Below are positions 25,357 to 36,269 of a stretch of 64,000 nucleotides of DNA, one piece after another; position 1 is the first letter of the stretch, and the number at the start of each line of letters is the position of its first letter. The DNA lies in NCBI RefSeq assembly GCF_055900595.2, contig NZ_CM148325.1; one strand, written 5' to 3'. The notes beneath the pieces were generated by a model, which was not told where the DNA came from, made no database searches, and was given only the letters and a program-made list of their open reading frames with translations. The translations under genes and the position numbers were made by a program.

Positions 25357-26466
25357 ATGAACGAACAATCCCAGGCCAAATCACCAGAAGCCTTGCGCGC
25401 AATGGTCGCCGGGACACTGGCCAATTTTCAGCACCCAACCCTGAAGCATAACCTCACCACGCTGAAAGCGTTGCACCATGTCGCCTGGATGGACGACACG
25501 TTGCATGTGGAACTGGTTATGCCATTCGTCTGGCATAGCGCGTTCGAAGAGTTAAAAGAGCAATGTAGCGCTGAACTGCTGCGCATCACCGGGGCGAAAG
25601 CTATCGACTGGAAACTGTCGCACAATATCGCCACCTTAAAACGCGTGAAGAATCAGCCGGGAATTAACGGCGTGAAGAACATCATTGCGGTCAGCTCCGG
25701 TAAAGGCGGCGTGGGTAAATCCTCCACGGCGGTAAATCTGGCGCTGGCACTGGCGGCGGAAGGGGCGAAAGTCGGCATTCTGGACGCCGATATCTACGGC
25801 CCATCAATACCCACCATGCTGGGCGCAGAAAATCAGCGTCCAACTTCGCCGGACGGTACCCATATGGCACCGATTATGTCTCATGGACTGGCAACCAATT
25901 CAATTGGTTATCTGGTCACTGACGACAATGCGATGGTGTGGCGTGGTCCGATGGCGAGCAAGGCGTTAATGCAGATGTTGCAGGAAACCTTGTGGCCGGA
26001 TCTCGACTATCTGGTGCTTGATATGCCGCCAGGCACCGGTGACATTCAATTGACACTGGCACAAAACATTCCAGTAACTGGCGCGGTAGTGGTCACCACC
26101 CCGCAGGACATTGCGTTGATCGATGCGAAAAAAGGCATTGTGATGTTCGAGAAAGTCGAGGTTCCGGTGCTCGGTATTGTCGAGAACATGAGTGTGCATA
26201 TTTGCAGTAACTGTGGTCACCATGAACCGATTTTCGGTACCGGTGGTGCAGAGAAACTGGCCGAGAAATACCACACGCAGTTGCTGGGGCAGATGCCGTT
26301 ACACATCTCCTTACGTGAAGATCTCGATAAAGGCACGCCAACGGTTATCAGCCGTCCGGAGAGCGAATTTACTGCTATCTACCGCCAGCTGGCTGACCGC
26401 GTTGCAGCCCAGCTTTATTGGCAGGGAGAAGTCATTCCTGGCGAGATTTCCTTCCGCGCGGTCTGA
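25357..26466 (+). CDS. mrp: Fe-S cluster carrier ATPase Mrp/ApbC
   Basis: 369 aa from MNEQSQAKSPEALRAMVAG...; deviant Walker A GKGGVGKS; CxxC motif. Confidence 0.9.
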   Translation: MNEQSQAKSPEALRAMVAGTLANFQHPTLKHNLTTLKALHHVAWMDDTLHVELVMPFVWHSAFEELKEQCSAELLRITGAKAIDWKLSHNIATLKRVKNQPGINGVKNIIAVSSGKGGVGKSSTAVNLALALAAEGAKVGILDADIYGPSIPTMLGAENQRPTSPDGTHMAPIMSHGLATNSIGYLVTDDNAMVWRGPMASKALMQMLQETLWPDLDYLVLDMPPGTGDIQLTLAQNIPVTGAVVVTTPQDIALIDAKKGIVMFEKVEVPVLGIVENMSVHICSNCGHHEPIFGTGGAEKLAEKYHTQLLGQMPLHISLREDLDKGTPTVISRPESEFTAIYRQLADRVAAQLYWQGEVIPGEISFRAV

Positions 26467-26495
26467 CGCGTATTAACCTTTTTGGTTGTTTTTCG

Positions 26496-26537
26496 TACAC
26501 CGCAGAGATGTTACATTGATGCGGTGTATTTGTTTTT
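26496..26537 (+). terminator. Rho-independent terminator after mrp
   Basis: 9-bp stem tacaccgca/tgcggtgta with long loop, followed by TTTGTTTTT. Confidence 0.5.
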
Positions 26538-26728
26538 GCCGCATTAATGAACACTTATTTAATGCTGCGAATATTCTGCGGACCTTCGTCCGAAACTCTA
26601 TAAAGTCGATTGATTGTACAGGCAATGCTTCATTATCATCCTTCGTGGCTGTGTAGTGGATGTACAGCTATAGTTTGTTATGCACTCATTCTATCCAGGC
26701 ATAACCTTTACTACAGGGATAACGTTCA

Positions 26729-27010
26729 ATGAATAAGTACTGGCTGTCAGGAATTATTTTTCTTGCCTATGGAATGGCTTCTCCCGCGTTCTCTTTACAG
26801 ACTGCCACATTAACGATTAATGGCAGGATCAGTCCCCCAACATGCAGTATGGCAATGGTTAATGGTCAACCTCAACAGCATTGTGGTCAGTTAACGTATA
26901 ATGTTGATACTCGTCATCAGGTTTCTTCGCCAGTTAAAGGTGTGACGACAGAAGTGGTTGTTGCAGGTAGTGATAGCAAACGTCGAATCGTGTTAAATCG
27001 CTACGATTAA
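26729..27010 (+). CDS. yehE: Secreted DUF2574 protein YehE
   Basis: 93 aa with signal peptide; immediately upstream of the yeh fimbrial genes. Confidence 0.8.
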   Translation: MNKYWLSGIIFLAYGMASPAFSLQTATLTINGRISPPTCSMAMVNGQPQQHCGQLTYNVDTRHQVSSPVKGVTTEVVVAGSDSKRRIVLNRYD

Positions 27011-27305
27011 TTTGCCACCCTGGTTTTTTAAGCGGATTTAGAAAGCTGAAATCATTCGTGTGAATGATTTAAGCTTTTTTATTGATATTAATAATACCAT
27101 TTAAAAAAATCTGCATTAATTAATAGATGTGATAAATATTTAATATGCTTAAGTATTTGTTGTATTTATATTGCAATAGTTAATTTGTTTTAAATCAATA
27201 AAACAATATGTTTACATTGCGGCAACTTTTTTGATGTGAGAAATTTGTTTCCAAGAGATACAGACTCTTAACAACCAAAAAATAAATTTTATTAAGGAAC
27301 ATATT
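27011..27305 (+). promoter_or_regulatory. Highly AT-rich promoter/regulatory region of the yehDCBA fimbrial operon
   Basis: About 300 bp at roughly 20-25% GC with phased A/T tracts, as in H-NS-silenced fimbrial promoters. Confidence 0.5.
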
Positions 27306-27848
27306 ATGAAACGTTCAATTATTGCTGCCGCTGTCTTTTCTTCTTTTTTTATGAGCGCTGGGGTATTTGCCGCAGACGTTGATACCGGAACATTAACCAT
27401 TAAAGGGAATATTGCAGAATCTCCGTGTAAATTCGAAGCGGGTGGTGATTCAGTAAGTATTAATATGCCAACTGTACCAACCACTGTCTTTGAAGGTAAA
27501 GCTAAATACTCGACCTATGATGATGCAGTCGGTGTAACCAGCAGCATGTTAAAAATTAGCTGTCCGAAAGAAGTTGCTGGTGTAAAACTCTCGTTGATTA
27601 CCAACGATAAAATAACCGGAAACGATAAGGCGATAGCCAGTAGCAACGATACCGTGGGGTACTATCTCTATTTAGGTGATAACAGCGATGTCCTGGATGT
27701 TTCTGCACCTTTTAACATTGAGAGTTATAAAACAGCGGAAGGTCAATATGCTATTCCGTTTAAAGCAAAATACCTGAAGCTGACAGATAATTCAGTGCAA
27801 TCAGGTGATGTGTTATCTTCTCTGGTTATGCGTGTGGCGCAGGATTAA
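27306..27848 (+). CDS. yehD: Fimbrial major subunit YehD
   Basis: 180 aa, signal peptide, Cys pair, fimbrial-subunit C-terminal beta-strand pattern. Confidence 0.88.
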   Translation: MKRSIIAAAVFSSFFMSAGVFAADVDTGTLTIKGNIAESPCKFEAGGDSVSINMPTVPTTVFEGKAKYSTYDDAVGVTSSMLKISCPKEVAGVKLSLITNDKITGNDKAIASSNDTVGYYLYLGDNSDVLDVSAPFNIESYKTAEGQYAIPFKAKYLKLTDNSVQSGDVLSSLVMRVAQD

Positions 27849-27884
27849 TAAATAAAATTTCAAATTTCTCCAGGTAATAAACAT

Positions 27885-27911
27885 GGCCGCTATCCCCATG
27901 GCGGCCTTTTA
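27885..27911 (+). terminator. Intra-operon attenuator/terminator after the major subunit gene yehD
   Basis: Stem ggccgctat/atggcggcc with CCCC loop followed by TTTT; usual position for a chaperone-usher operon attenuator. Confidence 0.6.
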
Positions 27912-27928
27912 ATTTAAGAGGCATTAAG

Positions 27929-28603
27929 ATGAAAGGATTATTAGCTTTACTCATTTCTTCTATGGTCCTTCCTGCGCATGCCGGAATTGTTATCTACGGG
28001 ACGCGCATTATTTACCCGGCAGAAAATAAAGAAGTGATGGTGCAGTTGATGAACCAGGGAAACCGTTCTTCGCTGCTGCAGGCGTGGATTGATGATGGCG
28101 ATACGTCGTTACCACCAGAAAAAATTCAGGTTCCTTTCATGTTAACGCCACCAGTGGCCAAAATAGGGGCAAATTCCGGGCAGCAAGTAAAAATCAAAAT
28201 TATGTCGAATAAACTGCCCACTAATAAAGAGAGCATTTTTTATCTGAATGTTCTGGATATTCCACCAAATAGTCCAGAGCAAGAGGGCAAGAATGCACTG
28301 AAATTTGCAATGCAAAACAGAATCAAATTGTTTTACCGGCCTGCGGGTATTGCACCGGTAAATAAAGCGACATTTAAAAAGTTACTGGTAAATCGCAGTG
28401 GCAATGGATTGGTGATAAAAAATGACTCAGCAAATTGGGTAACGATTTCGGATGTCAAAGCTAATAATGTCAAAGTCAATTATGAAACTATTATGATTGC
28501 CCCCTTAGAAAGTCAGAGTATTAATGTCAAAAGTAATAATGCGAATAACTGGTATCTGACCATTATCGATGACCATGGCAACTATATTAGTGACAAAATT
28601 TAA
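27929..28603 (+). CDS. yehC: Periplasmic fimbrial chaperone YehC
   Basis: 224 aa, signal peptide, PapD-like chaperone. Confidence 0.88.
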   Translation: MKGLLALLISSMVLPAHAGIVIYGTRIIYPAENKEVMVQLMNQGNRSSLLQAWIDDGDTSLPPEKIQVPFMLTPPVAKIGANSGQQVKIKIMSNKLPTNKESIFYLNVLDIPPNSPEQEGKNALKFAMQNRIKLFYRPAGIAPVNKATFKKLLVNRSGNGLVIKNDSANWVTISDVKANNVKVNYETIMIAPLESQSINVKSNNANNWYLTIIDDHGNYISDKI

Positions 28604-28618
28604 TTGCAGGAGCTGCCT

Positions 28619-31099
28619 ATGTTGAGAATGACCCCACTTGCATCAGCAATCGTAGCGTTATTGCTCGGCATTGAAGCTTATGCAGCTGAAGAAACCTTTG
28701 ATACCCATTTTATGATAGGTGGAATGAAAGACCAGCAGGTTGCAAATATTCGTCTTGATGATAATCAACCCTTGCCGGGGCAGTATGACATCGATATTTA
28801 TGTCAATAAGCAATGGCGCGGGAAATATGAGATTATTGTTAAAGACAACCCGCAAGAAACATGTTTATCAAGGGAAATTATCAAGCGGTTAGGCATTAAT
28901 ACCGATAACTTTGCCAGCGGTAAGCAATGTTTAACATTTGAGCAACTTGTTCACGGTGGGAGCTATACCTGGGATATCGGAGTTTTTCGTCTCGATTTCA
29001 GTGTACCGCAGGCGTGGGTGGAAGAACTGGAAAGTGGCTATGTTCCACCGGAAAACTGGGAGCGGGGTATTAATGCGTTTTATACCTCTTATTATGTGAG
29101 TCAGTATTACAGCGACTATAAAGCGTCGGGTAATAGCAAGAGTACATATGTACGTTTTAACAGCGGGTTAAACTTACTGGGGTGGCAACTGCATTCTGAT
29201 GCCAGTTTAAGTAAAACAAATAGCAATCCAGGGGTGTGGAAAAGCAATACCCTGTATCTGGAACGTGGATTTGCCCAACTTCTCGGCACGCTTCGCGTGG
29301 GTGATATGTACACATCAAGCGATATTTTTGATTCTGTTCGCTTCAGCGGTGTGCGGTTGTTTCGTGATATGCAGATGTTGCCTAACTCGAAACAAAATTT
29401 TACTCCACGGGTGCAGGGGATTGCTCAGAGTAACGCGCTGGTAACTATTGAACAGAACGGTTTTGTGGTTTATCAGAAAGAGGTTCCTCCTGGCCCGTTT
29501 GCGATTACAGATTTGCAGTTGGCCGGTGGTGGAGCAGATCTTGATGTCAGCGTGAAAGAGGCGGACGGTTCGGTAACCACCTATCTGGTGCCTTATGCAG
29601 CAGTGCCGAATATGCTGCAACCCGGCGTGTCGAAATATGATTTTGCGGCAGGTCGTAGCCATATTGAAGGGGCGAGCAAACAAAGTGATTTTGTTCAGGC
29701 GGGTTATCAGTATGGTTTTAATAACTTATTGACGCTGTATGGCGGATCGATGGTCGCGAATAATTATTACGCGTTCACTTTGGGGACTGGCTGGAATACA
29801 CGCATTGGTGCCATTTCCGTCGATGCCACGAAGTCGCATAGTAAACAAGACAACGGCGATGTGTTTGACGGGCAAAGTTATCAAATTGCCTACAACAAAT
29901 TTGTGAGCCAAACGTCGACGCGTTTTGGTCTGGCGGCCTGGCGTTATTCGTCGCGTGATTACCGGACATTTAACGATCACGTTTGGGCAAACAATAAAGA
30001 TAATTATCGCCGTGATGAAAACGATATCTATGACATTGCCGATTATTACCAGAACGATTTTGGCCGTAAAAATAGCTTTTCTGCCAATATGAGCCAGTCA
30101 TTGCCAGAAGGCTGGGGTTCTGTGTCCTTAAGTACGTTATGGCGAGATTACTGGGGGCGTAGCGGCAGCAGTAAGGATTATCAGTTGAGTTATTCCAACA
30201 ACCTGCGACGGATAAGCTATACCCTCGCGGCAAGCCAGGCTTATGACGAGAATCATCATGAAGAGAAACGTTTTAATATTTTTATAGCGATTCCCTTTGA
30301 TTGGGGTGATGACGTTACGACGCCTCGTCGGCAAATATATATATCTAACTCAACGACGTTTGATGATCAGGGGTTTGCCTCAAATAATACGGGATTATCG
30401 GGAACCGTTGGAAGCCGGGATCAATTTAACTATGGGGTCAACTTAAGTCATCAGCATCAGGGAAATGAAACGACAGCTGGCGCGAATTTGACCTGGAACG
30501 CGCCGGTTGCGACAGTGAATGGCAGTTATAGTCAGTCGAGTGCTTATCGACAAGCTGGAGCCAGTATTTCAGGGGGCATTGTCGCCTGGTCGGGTGGCGT
30601 TAATCTGGCGAACCGTCTTTCCGAAACGTTTGCTGTGATGAATGCGCCAGGAATTAAAGATGCTTATGTCAATGGGCAAAAATATCGCACAACAAACCGT
30701 AATGGAGTGGTGGTATACGACGGAATGACACCTTATCGGGAAAATCACCTGATGCTGGATGTGTCGCAAAGCGATAGCGAAGCAGAATTACGTGGCAACC
30801 GGAACATTGCCGCCCCTTTTCGCGGCGCGGTTGTACTGGTTAATTTTGATACCGATCAGCGCAAGCCCTGGTTTATAAAAGCGTTAAGAACGGATGGGCA
30901 ACCATTAACGTTTGGTTATGAAGTCAATGATATCCATGGTCATAATATTGGCGTTGTCGGCCAGGGAAGCCAGTTATTTATTCGCACCAATGAAGTACCG
31001 CCATCGGTTAATGTAGCAATTGATAAGCAACAAGGGCTTTCATGCACAATCACCTTCGGTAAAGAGATTGATGAAAGTAGAAATTATATTTGCCAGTAA
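28619..31099 (+). CDS. yehB: Outer-membrane fimbrial usher YehB
   Basis: 826 aa from MLRMTPLASAIVALLLG...; usher family; start trimmed from 28604. Confidence 0.88.
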   Translation: MLRMTPLASAIVALLLGIEAYAAEETFDTHFMIGGMKDQQVANIRLDDNQPLPGQYDIDIYVNKQWRGKYEIIVKDNPQETCLSREIIKRLGINTDNFASGKQCLTFEQLVHGGSYTWDIGVFRLDFSVPQAWVEELESGYVPPENWERGINAFYTSYYVSQYYSDYKASGNSKSTYVRFNSGLNLLGWQLHSDASLSKTNSNPGVWKSNTLYLERGFAQLLGTLRVGDMYTSSDIFDSVRFSGVRLFRDMQMLPNSKQNFTPRVQGIAQSNALVTIEQNGFVVYQKEVPPGPFAITDLQLAGGGADLDVSVKEADGSVTTYLVPYAAVPNMLQPGVSKYDFAAGRSHIEGASKQSDFVQAGYQYGFNNLLTLYGGSMVANNYYAFTLGTGWNTRIGAISVDATKSHSKQDNGDVFDGQSYQIAYNKFVSQTSTRFGLAAWRYSSRDYRTFNDHVWANNKDNYRRDENDIYDIADYYQNDFGRKNSFSANMSQSLPEGWGSVSLSTLWRDYWGRSGSSKDYQLSYSNNLRRISYTLAASQAYDENHHEEKRFNIFIAIPFDWGDDVTTPRRQIYISNSTTFDDQGFASNNTGLSGTVGSRDQFNYGVNLSHQHQGNETTAGANLTWNAPVATVNGSYSQSSAYRQAGASISGGIVAWSGGVNLANRLSETFAVMNAPGIKDAYVNGQKYRTTNRNGVVVYDGMTPYRENHLMLDVSQSDSEAELRGNRNIAAPFRGAVVLVNFDTDQRKPWFIKALRTDGQPLTFGYEVNDIHGHNIGVVGQGSQLFIRTNEVPPSVNVAIDKQQGLSCTITFGKEIDESRNYICQ

Positions 31100-31114: not shown

Positions 31115-32149
31115 ATGAAAATTCGCATAATGCTATTTATATTAACGATGATGGTTATGCCTGTGAGCTATGCAGCATGTTATAGTGAGTTATCTGTTCA
31201 GCACAATTTGATTGTTCAGGGGGATTTTGCACTTACTCAAACACAAATGGCAACATATGAGCATAATTTTAATGATTCGTCATGCGTGAGTACAAATACT
31301 ATCACCCCTATGAGCCCGTCGGATGTTATTGTTGGACTTTATAACGATACCATTAAATTAAATTTACATTTTGAATGGACCAATAAAAACAACATCACGT
31401 TGTCAAATAATCAGACCAGTTTCACCAATGGTTATTCGGTAACGGTGACACCTGCGGCCAGTAATGCAAAAGTGAATGTTTCTGCGGGGGGCGGCGGTTC
31501 AGTGATGATTAATGGTGTTGCGACATTATCCAGTGCTTCATCATCGACACGCGGGAGTGCTGCAGTACAATTTTTACTGTGTTTATTCGGTGGCAAGTCA
31601 TGGGATGCATGTGTAAATAGCTACAGAAATGCATTGGCACAAAATGCAGGTGTCTATTCCTTTAATCTGACATTGTCATACAACCCGATAACCACAACCT
31701 GCAAACCGGACGATTTATTAATTACTTTAGAGAGTATTCCCGTTTCACAATTACCTGCTACAGGTAACAAAGCAACAATAAATAGTAACAAAGGGGATAT
31801 TGTTCTGCGTTGTAAAAACTTATTAGGTCAACAAAATCAAACATCACGGAAAATGCAGGTGTATTTATCAAGTTCTGACTTGTTAACCAACAGCAACACA
31901 ATACTGAAAGGTGCGGAAGATAATGGTGTAGGATTTATTCTTGAAAGTAATGGTTCTCCAGTCACACTTTTAAATATCACTAACAGCAGTAAAGAATACA
32001 CAAATTTAAAAGAAATTGCGGCAAAGTCAATACTTACAGATACAACGGTTTCAATTCCGATAACTGCCAGTTACTACGTCTACGATACAAATAAAATTAA
32101 ATCTGGCGCACTGGAGGCAACCGCATTAATCAACGTGAAATACGACTAA
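31115..32149 (+). CDS. yehA: Fimbrial tip adhesin-like protein YehA
   Basis: 344 aa, signal peptide, two-domain adhesin-like fimbrial protein. Confidence 0.85.
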   Translation: MKIRIMLFILTMMVMPVSYAACYSELSVQHNLIVQGDFALTQTQMATYEHNFNDSSCVSTNTITPMSPSDVIVGLYNDTIKLNLHFEWTNKNNITLSNNQTSFTNGYSVTVTPAASNAKVNVSAGGGGSVMINGVATLSSASSSTRGSAAVQFLLCLFGGKSWDACVNSYRNALAQNAGVYSFNLTLSYNPITTTCKPDDLLITLESIPVSQLPATGNKATINSNKGDIVLRCKNLLGQQNQTSRKMQVYLSSSDLLTNSNTILKGAEDNGVGFILESNGSPVTLLNITNSSKEYTNLKEIAAKSILTDTTVSIPITASYYVYDTNKIKSGALEATALINVKYD

Positions 32150-32205: not shown

Positions 32206-32232
32206 CCCCCTCATGATGAGGGGGCTTTTTTT
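32206..32232 (+). terminator. Rho-independent terminator of the yeh fimbrial operon
   Basis: Perfect stem ccccctca/tgaggggg with 3-nt loop followed by a run of 7 T; the T-run overlaps the rcnB stop codon on the other strand. Confidence 0.75.
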
Positions 32233-34421: not shown

Positions 34422-34769
34422 TTATAATTCAGAACATTCACTGATGTTGTAAGTGCCTTTTCTACCATCATCGTTTACGAGATGTAGCACGAAGATGATG
34501 GGATTGGCATCAATGAAAGATACAGAGACGTTCCCGCTTTCGGTGCTATACATCTTTGCAATCTGTTTTTCACCAATATATGAAAGATCCCAACTCACTC
34601 CGTTCAAGCTAAAATGCATCTGTTTGCCGTCAATATCGATGGAGGATTGTGCCGTAACGGTTTTCCCATTGCTGCCAATTTGACCCTGCTGAAGAGCATC
34701 ACATTTATAGGAGCTTGCATAAGTAAATAGAGGTAGTAGCAGAAGTGCAGCAAAAATTTTACTCTTCAT
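34422..34769 (-). CDS. Small secreted protein, unknown function (signal peptide, 2 Cys)
   Basis: 115 aa, MKSKIFAALLLLPLFTYASS signal peptide; tandem with the 104-aa ORF 9 bp downstream. Confidence 0.6.
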   Translation of the reverse strand: MKSKIFAALLLLPLFTYASSYKCDALQQGQIGSNGKTVTAQSSIDIDGKQMHFSLNGVSWDLSYIGEKQIAKMYSTESGNVSVSFIDANPIIFVLHLVNDDGRKGTYNISECSEL

Positions 34770-35137
34770 ATTTTCCCTTTGCTTGGATTTGAGTTACCTA
34801 TTTTGGGGTAGTCATTATAAAACTATTAATTAGTAAAATGAACAAGTTTTCATTTGTTTAGTAATGGTATTGTTTAGGTTTGAAATTATTACGTACTTTC
34901 ATAGCAATAGGTTGGATAAACAGCAGTTCAGGGAACAAGTTGCACTATCTACATACTTTCCCGCTTTCCATTGTATGTTAGGTAATAGATAGCCTTTGCC
35001 CGTAAGACTAAAAATATTAGAAATGACTCATTCGAATACCTTCTATTCACCTTAATATAGGTTTGATTATTGTAATCGTTTAATGTGTCTTATGGATTTT
35101 TTCCTACTTTTCATTTGCATAATATAGGGGGCACAGC

Positions 35138-35257
35138 ATGCTCTTGAAATTAATTATTAAGATATTTAAATTTTACAGCACACAACTACTTTTCGTTGTC
35201 TTATGTGTTGAACGTACTTCGAGTATAGGTAGGGTTGTATATATATTGCGTGGGTAG
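35138..35257 (+). CDS. Candidate small hydrophobic peptide (39 aa)
   Basis: ORF MLLKLIIKIFKFYSTQLLFVVLCVERTSSIGRVVYILRG preceded by TAGGGGG about 7 nt upstream; lies in the AT-rich islet; below the ORF-track cutoff; could be spurious. Confidence 0.25.
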   Translation: MLLKLIIKIFKFYSTQLLFVVLCVERTSSIGRVVYILRG

Positions 35258-35822
35258 AGTTAGAATAGAGGAGGCATCATTTATAGAATATTCAAGAACG
35301 TTAACCTGTGATCAATAAATAAAAATATCAAATGGTGTTCAAACATATTTTTCTATGAAAAATCCAGCCATCTATGATGAATTTTTAGATCCATTTTAAT
35401 TAAAGTATGATTATGAACCAATATTTAGCCAAGAATGGTGGTATAGCGCGTATCCAATGACACCGGAAAACGCATCTATGAAGTCCTTGTTTATCTCTAT
35501 AAGAGGAAATCAACACTAATAAAATATAGTGATGTAACACATCGAGCAGGTTGCTCTGATGCTGGTCTTCAACTGTGGCTTAAACAGCTATCAAACTTCG
35601 GTGTTATTGAGATGAAAGAATTATCTTTCTCAACTTTCAATCTCAAAAAGCTAGAGGAAATAGACCTTAATTATTCCACTCTCTAAACTTATCTCTTTAT
35701 TTAAAGTAAAAATGAAAATATTATGGTATCAGCTACGTGGTGGTAACTGGTGTTTATGATCATAGGTACACATATACAGGGAACCCTGGAAAACAAAAGT
35801 AATATATTGATGATTTCGTTTG

Positions 35823-36062
35823 TTATAACTTCGTGGTATCAAGTCCGGCGGCTTTGAGTCGCTCGGTAAGATTTCTCATTTTGCTGAACTCTGTACCAAA
35901 GCTGGCTTTAAGTCCTACACCTTCGCAAAACTCTTTTGCCGTGACGTTTTTAAGATGGTCAGCGTATTTGATCATCTGGAGGTGCATTTCCATCGTTTGG
36001 CTATTTCGTGGTGCGCTGCTAATGGCTTGCTTAATGTTCTCGTAGATCTGGGTTTCTGTCAT
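35823..36062 (-). CDS. Small putative DNA-binding protein (79 aa), unknown family
   Basis: ORF with a GGTGAGA RBS; central helix-turn-helix-like segment (VTAKEFCEGVGLKASFGTEFSKMRNL); AT-rich upstream region with 12-bp direct repeats. Confidence 0.55.
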   Translation of the reverse strand: MTETQIYENIKQAISSAPRNSQTMEMHLQMIKYADHLKNVTAKEFCEGVGLKASFGTEFSKMRNLTERLKAAGLDTTKL

Positions 36063-36269
36063 TTTTTATCTCACCTATCAAATTTAGATAAATAATATAA
36101 ATTAGATAAATAAGATAATCAATAGTTTTTACCATATGAATAATGGATGTGGATTGTTTCTTTTTCATTTCTGATATGGAGTACAAAATGGGGTCACAAT
36201 GAAGAAGCGATGAATGGAGGCGAGCTTGCATCTGCAAGCCTCTTCCCCTAATCTGGCACAAAATATAGA

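Follow-up and report, generated by a model that had tools for sequence, protein, structure and literature searches.

What does the short gap between the pilin gene and the chaperone gene contribute to the expression of a fimbrial operon, and how much of the AT-rich DNA in front of such an operon is its promoter? Both questions are raised by the yeh locus in a 64,000-nucleotide stretch of contig NZ_CM148325.1 (RefSeq assembly GCF_055900595.2), the whole of which we refer to as the window and number from its first letter. Recent work connects Yeh with pectin binding and with virulence gene expression in enterohaemorrhagic Escherichia coli (EHEC). The segment studied here forms the regulatory front end of yehDCBA, a chromosomal fimbrial operon of the chaperone-usher (gamma-4) type, in which, by the K-12/RefSeq gene names used throughout, yehD comes first and encodes the major subunit, while yehA comes last and encodes the adhesin. 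On our reading, to which we give a probability of about 0.7, this would be an H-NS-silenced front end in which a stem-loop behind yehD stabilises the pilin message and, in the common E. coli allele, also brings about partial termination. The sequences, their composition, the conservation and covariation of the two hairpins described below and the allele frequencies were obtained here; H-NS binding and repression, the effect of SlyA, CsrA binding and the junction-spanning EHEC transcript come from the literature on K-12 and EHEC, not on this strain.

The gap between yehD and yehC is 80 nt long and contains, 37 nt past the yehD stop codon (27846-27848), a sense-strand hairpin of nine base pairs, six of them G-C and one a U.G pair (T27891/G27900), with a predicted free energy (dG) of -14.5 kcal/mol. 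It is followed by the tail TTTTAATTT, then AAGAGG and the yehC ATG. The preliminary description of this DNA had noted a strong hairpin and a T-run after yehD and before the chaperone gene, and both are indeed present in the window allele at 27885-27915. None of 300 dinucleotide shuffles of the gap gave an equally stable 30-nt hairpin, and the element ranks in the top 0.6% of plus-strand 34-nt windows, with one other such site in the yeh operon. Its stem also falls within the range (about 5-14 bp with a short loop) expected of a Rho-independent terminator. A terminator consensus scan was unremarkable (3 sites in 6 kb, with 5.2 expected), and the fold of the 96 nt around the hairpin had a z-score of only -1.1.

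Conservation of the hairpin was assessed in an alignment in which seven alleles from E. coli were set beside those of four further Escherichia lineages, of Citrobacter-type loci and of a metagenome-assembled genome (MAG) of Superficieibacter. A genome scan with YehD returned only Escherichia and one MAG, the Citrobacter-type loci came via a protein search, and the comparison is without Salmonella stc, for which no locus was retrieved. In Escherichia, 98% of the stem cells were paired, and two pairs carried compensatory changes from G-C to A-U. These double changes are independent, one being found in Escherichia sp. EC7003 and the other being common to E. whittamii and E. albertii, and control stems in which the partners had been slid by 1-3 columns contained no compensatory changes. 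In addition, one-sided changes keep the pairing as G.U or U.G on the sense strand at two variable Escherichia positions and at two further positions in Citrobacter-type loci, the cases being the T27891.G27900 pair of the K-12-type allele, a C-to-T change in the 3' arm of strain 2013C-3513 (columns 24/45, with ten GC and one GU) and the Citrobacter-type loci L017 and L019. Since sense-strand G.U pairs would be A.C mismatches on the antisense strand, an RNA of the sense strand is favoured. Furthermore, hairpins unrelated in sequence recur at the same junction in Citrobacter (GTCGGCGGC-ATT-GCCGCCGAC, a 9-bp GC stem, then ATTTTTATC), in Superficieibacter (ATCGGCGGC-ATT-GCCGCCGAT) and in the yhl paralogue of O157 Sakai (CCGGTAGC-TCT-GCTACCGG, then TATTATTT), each of them equalled by none of 300 shuffles. 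At the level of sequence comparison, the covariation, the G.U pairs and the recurrence at the junction together show that the yehD-yehC stem is under selection as a structure of the sense-strand RNA. It is stable and conserved at the 3' boundary of yehD, with or without a U-tract, as a protective 3' stem-loop should be.

The tail behind the stem was found to be specific to one allele. The K-12-type tail UUUUAAUUU has six U in its first eight nucleotides and a tail score of 4.55, as expected of a terminator, and by simple measures this hairpin and tail are as good as the terminator at the end of the operon (-14.5/4.55 versus -13.9/3.84 for dG in kcal/mol and tail score). The K-12-type junction was found in 4751 of the 5426 complete E. 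coli genomes and the O157-type junction in 368. The O157-type allele, E. albertii, E. whittamii, EC7003 and E1V33 all keep an equal or better stem without the T-run, with AGCATAAATAT or a similar sequence as the tail. Such U-poor tails (AGCAUAAAUAU or AAUAUGAAUAC) have only two or three U in eight positions, scoring 1.7-2.2 (1.71 in the O157-type), and do not constitute a terminator U-tract. In EHEC, which carries an allele without the T-run, reverse-transcription PCR (RT-PCR) finds one junction-spanning transcript across the locus (PMC11287998). As the stem is kept where the T-run is missing, and as the EHEC transcript crosses the junction, the conserved function is unlikely to be termination; judged by the alignment, the conserved element is the stem-loop and not a canonical terminator. 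The K-12-type allele must itself be leaky: in K-12, functional Yeh phenotypes were obtained once a constitutive promoter had been put ahead of the operon (PMC5797941, summarising Korea et al. 2010), which implies substantial read-through. No yehD to yehC expression ratios were found in the literature searched.

These data bear directly on an alternative along the lines of the attenuator proposed in the preliminary description, namely that the hairpin does nothing but terminate, as a canonical Rho-independent element (a leaky 'attenuator') that stops a fixed fraction of polymerases after yehD. The stem and tail of the window allele match or exceed the operon-end terminator, the version with the T-run is the one carried by those 4751 genomes, and the Citrobacter junction, with its GC stem and ATTTTTATC, is a textbook version of such an element. 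Yet compensatory changes keep the stem in lineages whose tails are expected to make poor terminators, and the EHEC allele without the T-run yields a single transcript. Because the stem is selected despite poor tails, termination alone is an insufficient explanation, and we regard this alternative as unlikely.

An attenuator in the strict sense finds no counterpart in the sequence. No helix competing with the terminator stem was seen in either the minimum free energy (MFE) or the centroid fold of 27840-27935, and an Rfam search of 26400-28700 at a permissive threshold returned only a chance match to a eukaryotic small Cajal body-specific RNA (E 0.67) and no cis-regulatory element. The roughly 35 nt before the hairpin are also the least conserved part of the locus (46-57% identity). 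Sequestration of the yehC Shine-Dalgarno sequence was rejected as well: the stem is 9-10 nt upstream of AAGAGG, and a weak AU helix that covers this motif in the MFE fold is gone in the centroid. The same applies to a repeat of the repetitive extragenic palindromic (REP) or bacterial interspersed mosaic element type, since a 60-nt hairpin query matched a median of one place per genome in the 4751 genomes, always at the yehC junction.

We therefore consider how a conserved stem with a variable tail might act. A GC-rich stem-loop that forms between yehD and yehC in the sense RNA would raise the yehD (pilin) message above the yehCBA (chaperone, usher and adhesin) message. In all lineages, the stem would block 3'-to-5' exonucleases, such that the yehD segment outlives the distal transcript (selective mRNA stabilisation). 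In the common E. coli allele, the added UUUUAAUUU tail could act as a partial intrinsic terminator, so that only some polymerases would reach yehC. By analogy with published models of stabilisation and processing at malE-malF and at the RNase-resistant papA 3' end (PMC5927463, PMC4423207), protection of the yehD mRNA 3' end is the more likely conserved function; whether it terminates or stabilises, we infer that the hairpin thereby sets the stoichiometry of the subunits. Both the papA 3' terminator/stabiliser and the malE-malF hairpin, like that of yeh, place a stable stem-loop directly past the most-needed first or major cistron of an operon for a surface structure of several subunits, from which a surplus of subunit message over that of the later genes is expected (PMC5927463, PMC4423207). 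For pap and mal, however, cleavage sites, half-lives and nucleases have been measured, whereas yeh is known here from sequence; pap has an upstream RNase E site between papB and papA as well, and the element of malE-malF belongs to the REP repeats, whereas that of yeh occurs once per genome.

A further-reaching version of this idea holds that the stem, being kept even where terminating is impossible, might mark the stable end of a processed RNA, or else a small RNA from the 3' untranslated region (UTR) or intergenic region with a regulatory role of its own, comparable to FimR2 of the fim operon, and that the gain of the U-tract in the main E. coli lineage was a recent rewiring of a stabiliser into a terminator. 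If true, this rewiring would have changed the pilin-to-machinery ratio between allele types. We think this version improbable.

We hold it to be more doubtful still that the hairpin marks a small stable RNA from the yehD 3' UTR or intergenic region with targets of its own, similar to FimR2, the annotated 35-nt small RNA in the K-12 fimA-fimI gap. FimR2 is an RNase E product of the fim transcript and binds CsrA via a GGA in its loop (PMC9723502); it contains a stem-loop and, like the yeh hairpin, sits past the major subunit gene and ahead of the following gene in a CsrA-linked operon, yeh itself being regulated by CsrA (PMC11287998), and the yeh stem is conserved beyond the needs of a terminator. 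FimR2, however, has two GGA motifs, of which the one in the loop is needed for CsrA binding, while the yeh gap has none in either allele type; the poor conservation of the sequence just before the yeh hairpin argues against a conserved seed, and there is no Rfam match. The K-12 MG1655 annotation places FimR2 in the post-pilin gap (positions 1175-1209 of locus L021), and such gaps can thus encode regulators and not only terminators.

That the palindrome acts as DNA, bound by a dimeric protein or belonging to a REP-like family, is the least credible proposal. In its favour, the O157-type version forms a perfect palindrome of 10 bp (TGGCCGCCAT-ATTC-ATGGCGGCCA), and substitutions in a symmetric operator are indistinguishable from compensatory changes. 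Against it, the hairpin is single-copy and without an Rfam match, and the sense-strand G.U pairs of the four independent variants listed above (T27891.G27900, 2013C-3513, L017 and L019) would, in DNA, amount to A.C mismatches or to asymmetric half-sites. The unrelated hairpins that Citrobacter, Superficieibacter and yhl have at this junction fit a structural rather than a sequence-specific requirement.

Since the preliminary description had called this arrangement the classic architecture, five other K-12 chaperone-usher operons were tested for a hairpin past the first pilin gene, using the same kind of shuffle test. This revealed strong hairpins in the gaps of elfA-elfD and yraH-yraI (matched by none of 200 shuffles each) and of yadN-yadV (matched by 2 of 200), and no significant hairpin in those of fimA-fimI and sfmA-sfmC. 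Together with yhl, these cases bear the label out. The elfA-elfD, yraH-yraI, yadN-yadV and O157 yhl operons share with yeh a GC-rich stem of 8-15 bp in a short post-pilin gap and a more or less U-rich tail, but the sequences of their hairpins are unrelated to that of yeh and their tails differ (yraH, UUUUCCUU; elfA, AUAUUCAUAUUUUUU).

The second part of the front end is the region between yehE and yehD. The 300 bp upstream of yehD had been described as among the most AT-rich in the window, which is an understatement, as they are the most AT-rich of the 64 kb. The intergenic region 27011-27305 has a GC content of 24.1%, the 300-bp bin 27001-27300 is the lowest in the window (GC 0.247), and the window minimum falls inside the region at every sliding scale (15% over 100 bp at 27115-27214, 20.5% over 200 bp at 27036-27235 and 22.3% over 300 bp at 27024-27323). 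Relative to the window mean of 49.8% (standard deviation 6.2%), the 300-bp minimum lies about 4.4 standard deviations below. Tracts of at least four A/T occur at 27 per kb in 27011-27305 versus 11.5 per kb window-wide, and TpA steps at 11.2 per 100 bases versus 4.9. With the GC minimum of the window and a more than two-fold enrichment of both A/T tracts and TpA steps, the region has the composition of an H-NS-silenced promoter. A second large AT-rich tract was noted beyond rcnR at 34700-36250 (GC 0.19-0.30 in 100-300-bp windows); in the closest genome, a small 'outer membrane protein' is found there together with a hypothetical protein and a helix-turn-helix-like fragment, ahead of the thiamine pyrophosphate riboswitch, and the tract probably represents a further H-NS-type island of horizontal origin.

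As the alignment reads, the AT-rich region is a composite of three segments: a yehE terminator, a fast-evolving spacer and a conserved block of 140 bp (Table 1). It follows that the 300 bp previously taken as the promoter can stand as such only for their last 140 bp or so, which are conserved, the first 80 bp or so being the yehE terminator. The terminator has a dG of -11.3 kcal/mol in the window allele, where the stem includes one G.A mismatch, and of -16.5 kcal/mol in K-12, and none of 300 shuffles of the local sequence was as stable. Among 13 Escherichia sequences, 97% of its stem cells were paired and four pairs showed compensatory changes (14 cells), a degree of covariation matched by none of 500 shuffles. 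The identification of 27045-27083 as a genuine intrinsic terminator of yehE is thus well supported by comparative evidence. Its presence implies that yehE and yehDCBA are probably separate transcription units, though some papers write 'yehEDCBA'. The order in which yehE lies upstream of yehD is also seen in Escherichia, Citrobacter and related loci.

In the spacer, which follows the terminator, identity to the window (55-64%) drops below that of the flanking genes. The block that comes next behaves in the opposite way, being 90% identical to the window in O157, 88% in E. albertii and 74.5% in Citrobacter, compared with 80%, 80% and 67%, respectively, for the yehD coding sequence, and with 75-78% in divergent Escherichia alleles and 50% in Citrobacter for yehE. 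Being more conserved than either flanking gene, the block presumably holds the promoter and 5' UTR. CsrA has been found to bind the yehD 5' UTR in EHEC by electrophoretic mobility shift assay (PMC11287998), and the AAGGA at 27294-27298 corresponds to the EHEC CsrA site of that study; the extent of the conservation suggests dense regulatory information in the block beyond the CsrA site. By our own reading of the sequence, TTTAAA at 27189-27194 and TACATT at 27213-27218, 18 nt apart, are candidate -35 and -10 elements of yehD. A consensus scan for the yehD promoter was set aside, as its sole plus-strand match in the region, at 27082-27110, falls in the non-conserved spacer.

Silencing by H-NS, which the preliminary description had read from the composition, is right and has already been published, for the K-12 counterpart rather than for this strain. 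In K-12, yehDCBA has been classed as cryptic and as a member of the H-NS regulon on the basis of two chromatin immunoprecipitation (ChIP) data sets (K and O), and overproduction of SlyA raises its expression 3.6-fold (PMC5797941); the same paper cites Korea et al. for repression of the K-12 operon by H-NS. The K-12 region between yehD and yehE is listed among 78 'promoter islands', which are occupied by RNA polymerase and H-NS and yet yield little transcript (PMC3661553), and the locus lies within an extended protein occupancy domain (bioRxiv 10.1101/2024.06.20.599902). Like these islands and the silenced fimbrial promoters of K-12 (sfm, yad, elf and yeh), the window has extreme AT content upstream of an operon that looks horizontally acquired; the genome-wide studies of promoter islands did not resolve the composite of terminator, spacer and conserved block at yeh. 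The word 'cryptic' holds for K-12 under laboratory conditions and fails for EHEC, which expresses the operon from its native promoter (PMC11287998). Activity has also been seen with yeh lacZ fusions and was higher at 28 C (PMC7098969, citing Low et al. 2006); crypticity is better described as dependent on condition and strain. On this basis, the front end might work as follows: a Rho-independent terminator just past yehE would separate it from the fimbrial genes, the AT-rich intergenic region would serve as a platform from which H-NS silences the yehD promoter under laboratory conditions, with SlyA countering it, and the last 140 bp or so would provide a conserved promoter and 5' UTR on which CsrA acts.

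A phase-variable promoter, whether invertible as in fim or controlled by Dam and Lrp as in pap, was considered and rejected. The inverted repeats in the region are low-complexity AT sequences only, with at most 87% identity over 15 nt, no pair of GATC sites was found, and the RefSeq annotation has no recombinase gene next to the yeh locus. GATC is absent between 26831 and 29536, a stretch of 2.7 kb that reaches from the last part of yehE across the regulatory region, yehD and yehC into the first part of yehB. For comparison, GATC is matched 232 times in the window when both strands are counted (about 116 sites), at a mean spacing of about 550 bp, so that this gap is a few-fold longer than average.

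Several observations weigh against our reading of the locus as a whole. The covariation sample for the yehD-yehC stem is small (11 distinct sequences with three compensatory cells), and values as high as those observed arose in 14 of 500 and 2 of 500 shuffles. Compensatory changes in a perfect palindrome are equally expected of a symmetric DNA-binding site, and only the G.U pairs argue for RNA. The T-run is missing from the O157-type allele and from four other Escherichia lineages. Neither yehD nor yehC nor yehE has an entry in the supplementary Term-seq and mRNA decay data of PMC7815308 and PMC5927463, as expected of a silent operon. The high-affinity H-NS motif TCGATAAATT has a single match (with at most two mismatches) in the AT-rich region, so that the case for H-NS is made by composition and published ChIP and not by the motif. 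Finally, the H-NS data are those of K-12, whose intergenic region is about 85-98% identical to that of this strain, depending on the segment.

The operon, its silencing by H-NS and its control by CsrA have thus been described before, and the post-pilin hairpin, although not itself described earlier, comes as no surprise in a class that is well known. What is new here is the covarying yehE terminator, the conserved block of 140 bp, the upkeep of the yehD-yehC stem by compensatory changes and G.U pairs, with unrelated hairpins at this junction elsewhere, and the restriction of the U-tract, among the Escherichia lineages compared, to the common E. coli allele. The importance of these elements beyond annotation is small; they add a map of regulatory elements for a widespread and poorly understood adhesin system. 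The two allele types, with a common stem and different U-tracts, also form a natural experiment that could separate termination from mRNA stabilisation as sources of pilin excess.

With regard to the genes themselves, 5,423 of the 5,426 complete E. coli genomes match the window at 26.4-32.3 kb, and RefSeq gives the gene order of the matching region as apbC, yehE, yehD, yehC, yehB, yehA and the convergent rcnB. All four fimbrial genes are intact, and RefSeq and Pfam agree with the gene identities given earlier for the operon (Table 1).

Table 1 Features of the yeh locus, in window coordinates
Feature	Position	Strand	Description
yehE	26729-27010	+	93-aa DUF2574 protein; open reading frame (ORF), RefSeq 'YehE family protein', Pfam DUF2574 (E 7e-51)
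yehE intrinsic terminator (well supported)	27045-27083	+	13-bp AT-rich stem 27045-27057/27062-27074, loop GTGT, then TTTTTTATT
Fast-evolving AT spacer	27091-27164		Holds the window GC minimum; identity to window 63.5% in O157, 58% in E. albertii, 55% in E. whittamii
Conserved non-coding block	27165-27305	+	Presumed yehD promoter and 5' UTR; AAGGA (Shine-Dalgarno/CsrA-type) at 27294-27298
yehD	27306-27848	+	180-aa major fimbrial subunit; ORF, RefSeq 'fimbrial protein', Pfam Fimbrial
yehD-yehC stem-loop	27885-27906	+	Sense-strand stem-loop between pilin and chaperone genes; 5' arm GGCCGCTAT 27885-27893, loop CCCC 27894-27897, 3' arm ATGGCGGCC 27898-27906
U-rich tail	27907-27915	+	TTTTAATTT; confined to the common (K-12-type) E. 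coli allele
yehC Shine-Dalgarno and start	27916-27931	+	AAGAGG 27916-27921 and ATG 27929; outside the hairpin, 100% identical in all Escherichia compared
yehC	27929-28603	+	Chaperone; ORF, RefSeq, Pfam PapD_N/PapD_C
yehB	28619-31099	+	Usher; ORF, RefSeq, Pfam Usher/PapC_N/PapC_C
yehA	31115-32149	+	Adhesin-like; ORF, RefSeq, Pfam Fimbrial
Operon-end terminator	32206-32232	+	CCCCCTCATGATGAGGGGG then CTTTTTTT; adjoins convergent rcnB

The names in the literature conflict. In the UTI89/Hultgren scheme, letters follow the order of transcription, such that yehA denotes the major subunit and yehD the adhesin (PMC12778044), and statements about 'YehD' in papers need to be checked against this nomenclature.

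A few further observations were made at the locus. The first 44 or so residues of YehD (27306-27440) match the DUF2574 (YehE) profile weakly (E 8e-4), and a pilin-like 'TLTINGRISPPTC' motif is present in YehE, which may be a truncated, pilin-derived protein. The yehE-yehD-yehC region comes in two deeply diverged E. coli allele types, with about 80% nucleotide identity between them (loci L003 and L004 versus the window), and the O157-type junction sequence is nearer to those of E. albertii, E. whittamii and E1V33; this suggests either an ancient allelic divergence or recombination from other Escherichia. Upstream of yehE, a hairpin consisting of ACACCGCAGAGATGTTACATTGATGCGGTGT then ATTTGTTTTTG lies just past the apbC stop codon at 26484-26535, is among the 60 most stable plus-strand 34-nt windows and is likely the apbC terminator.

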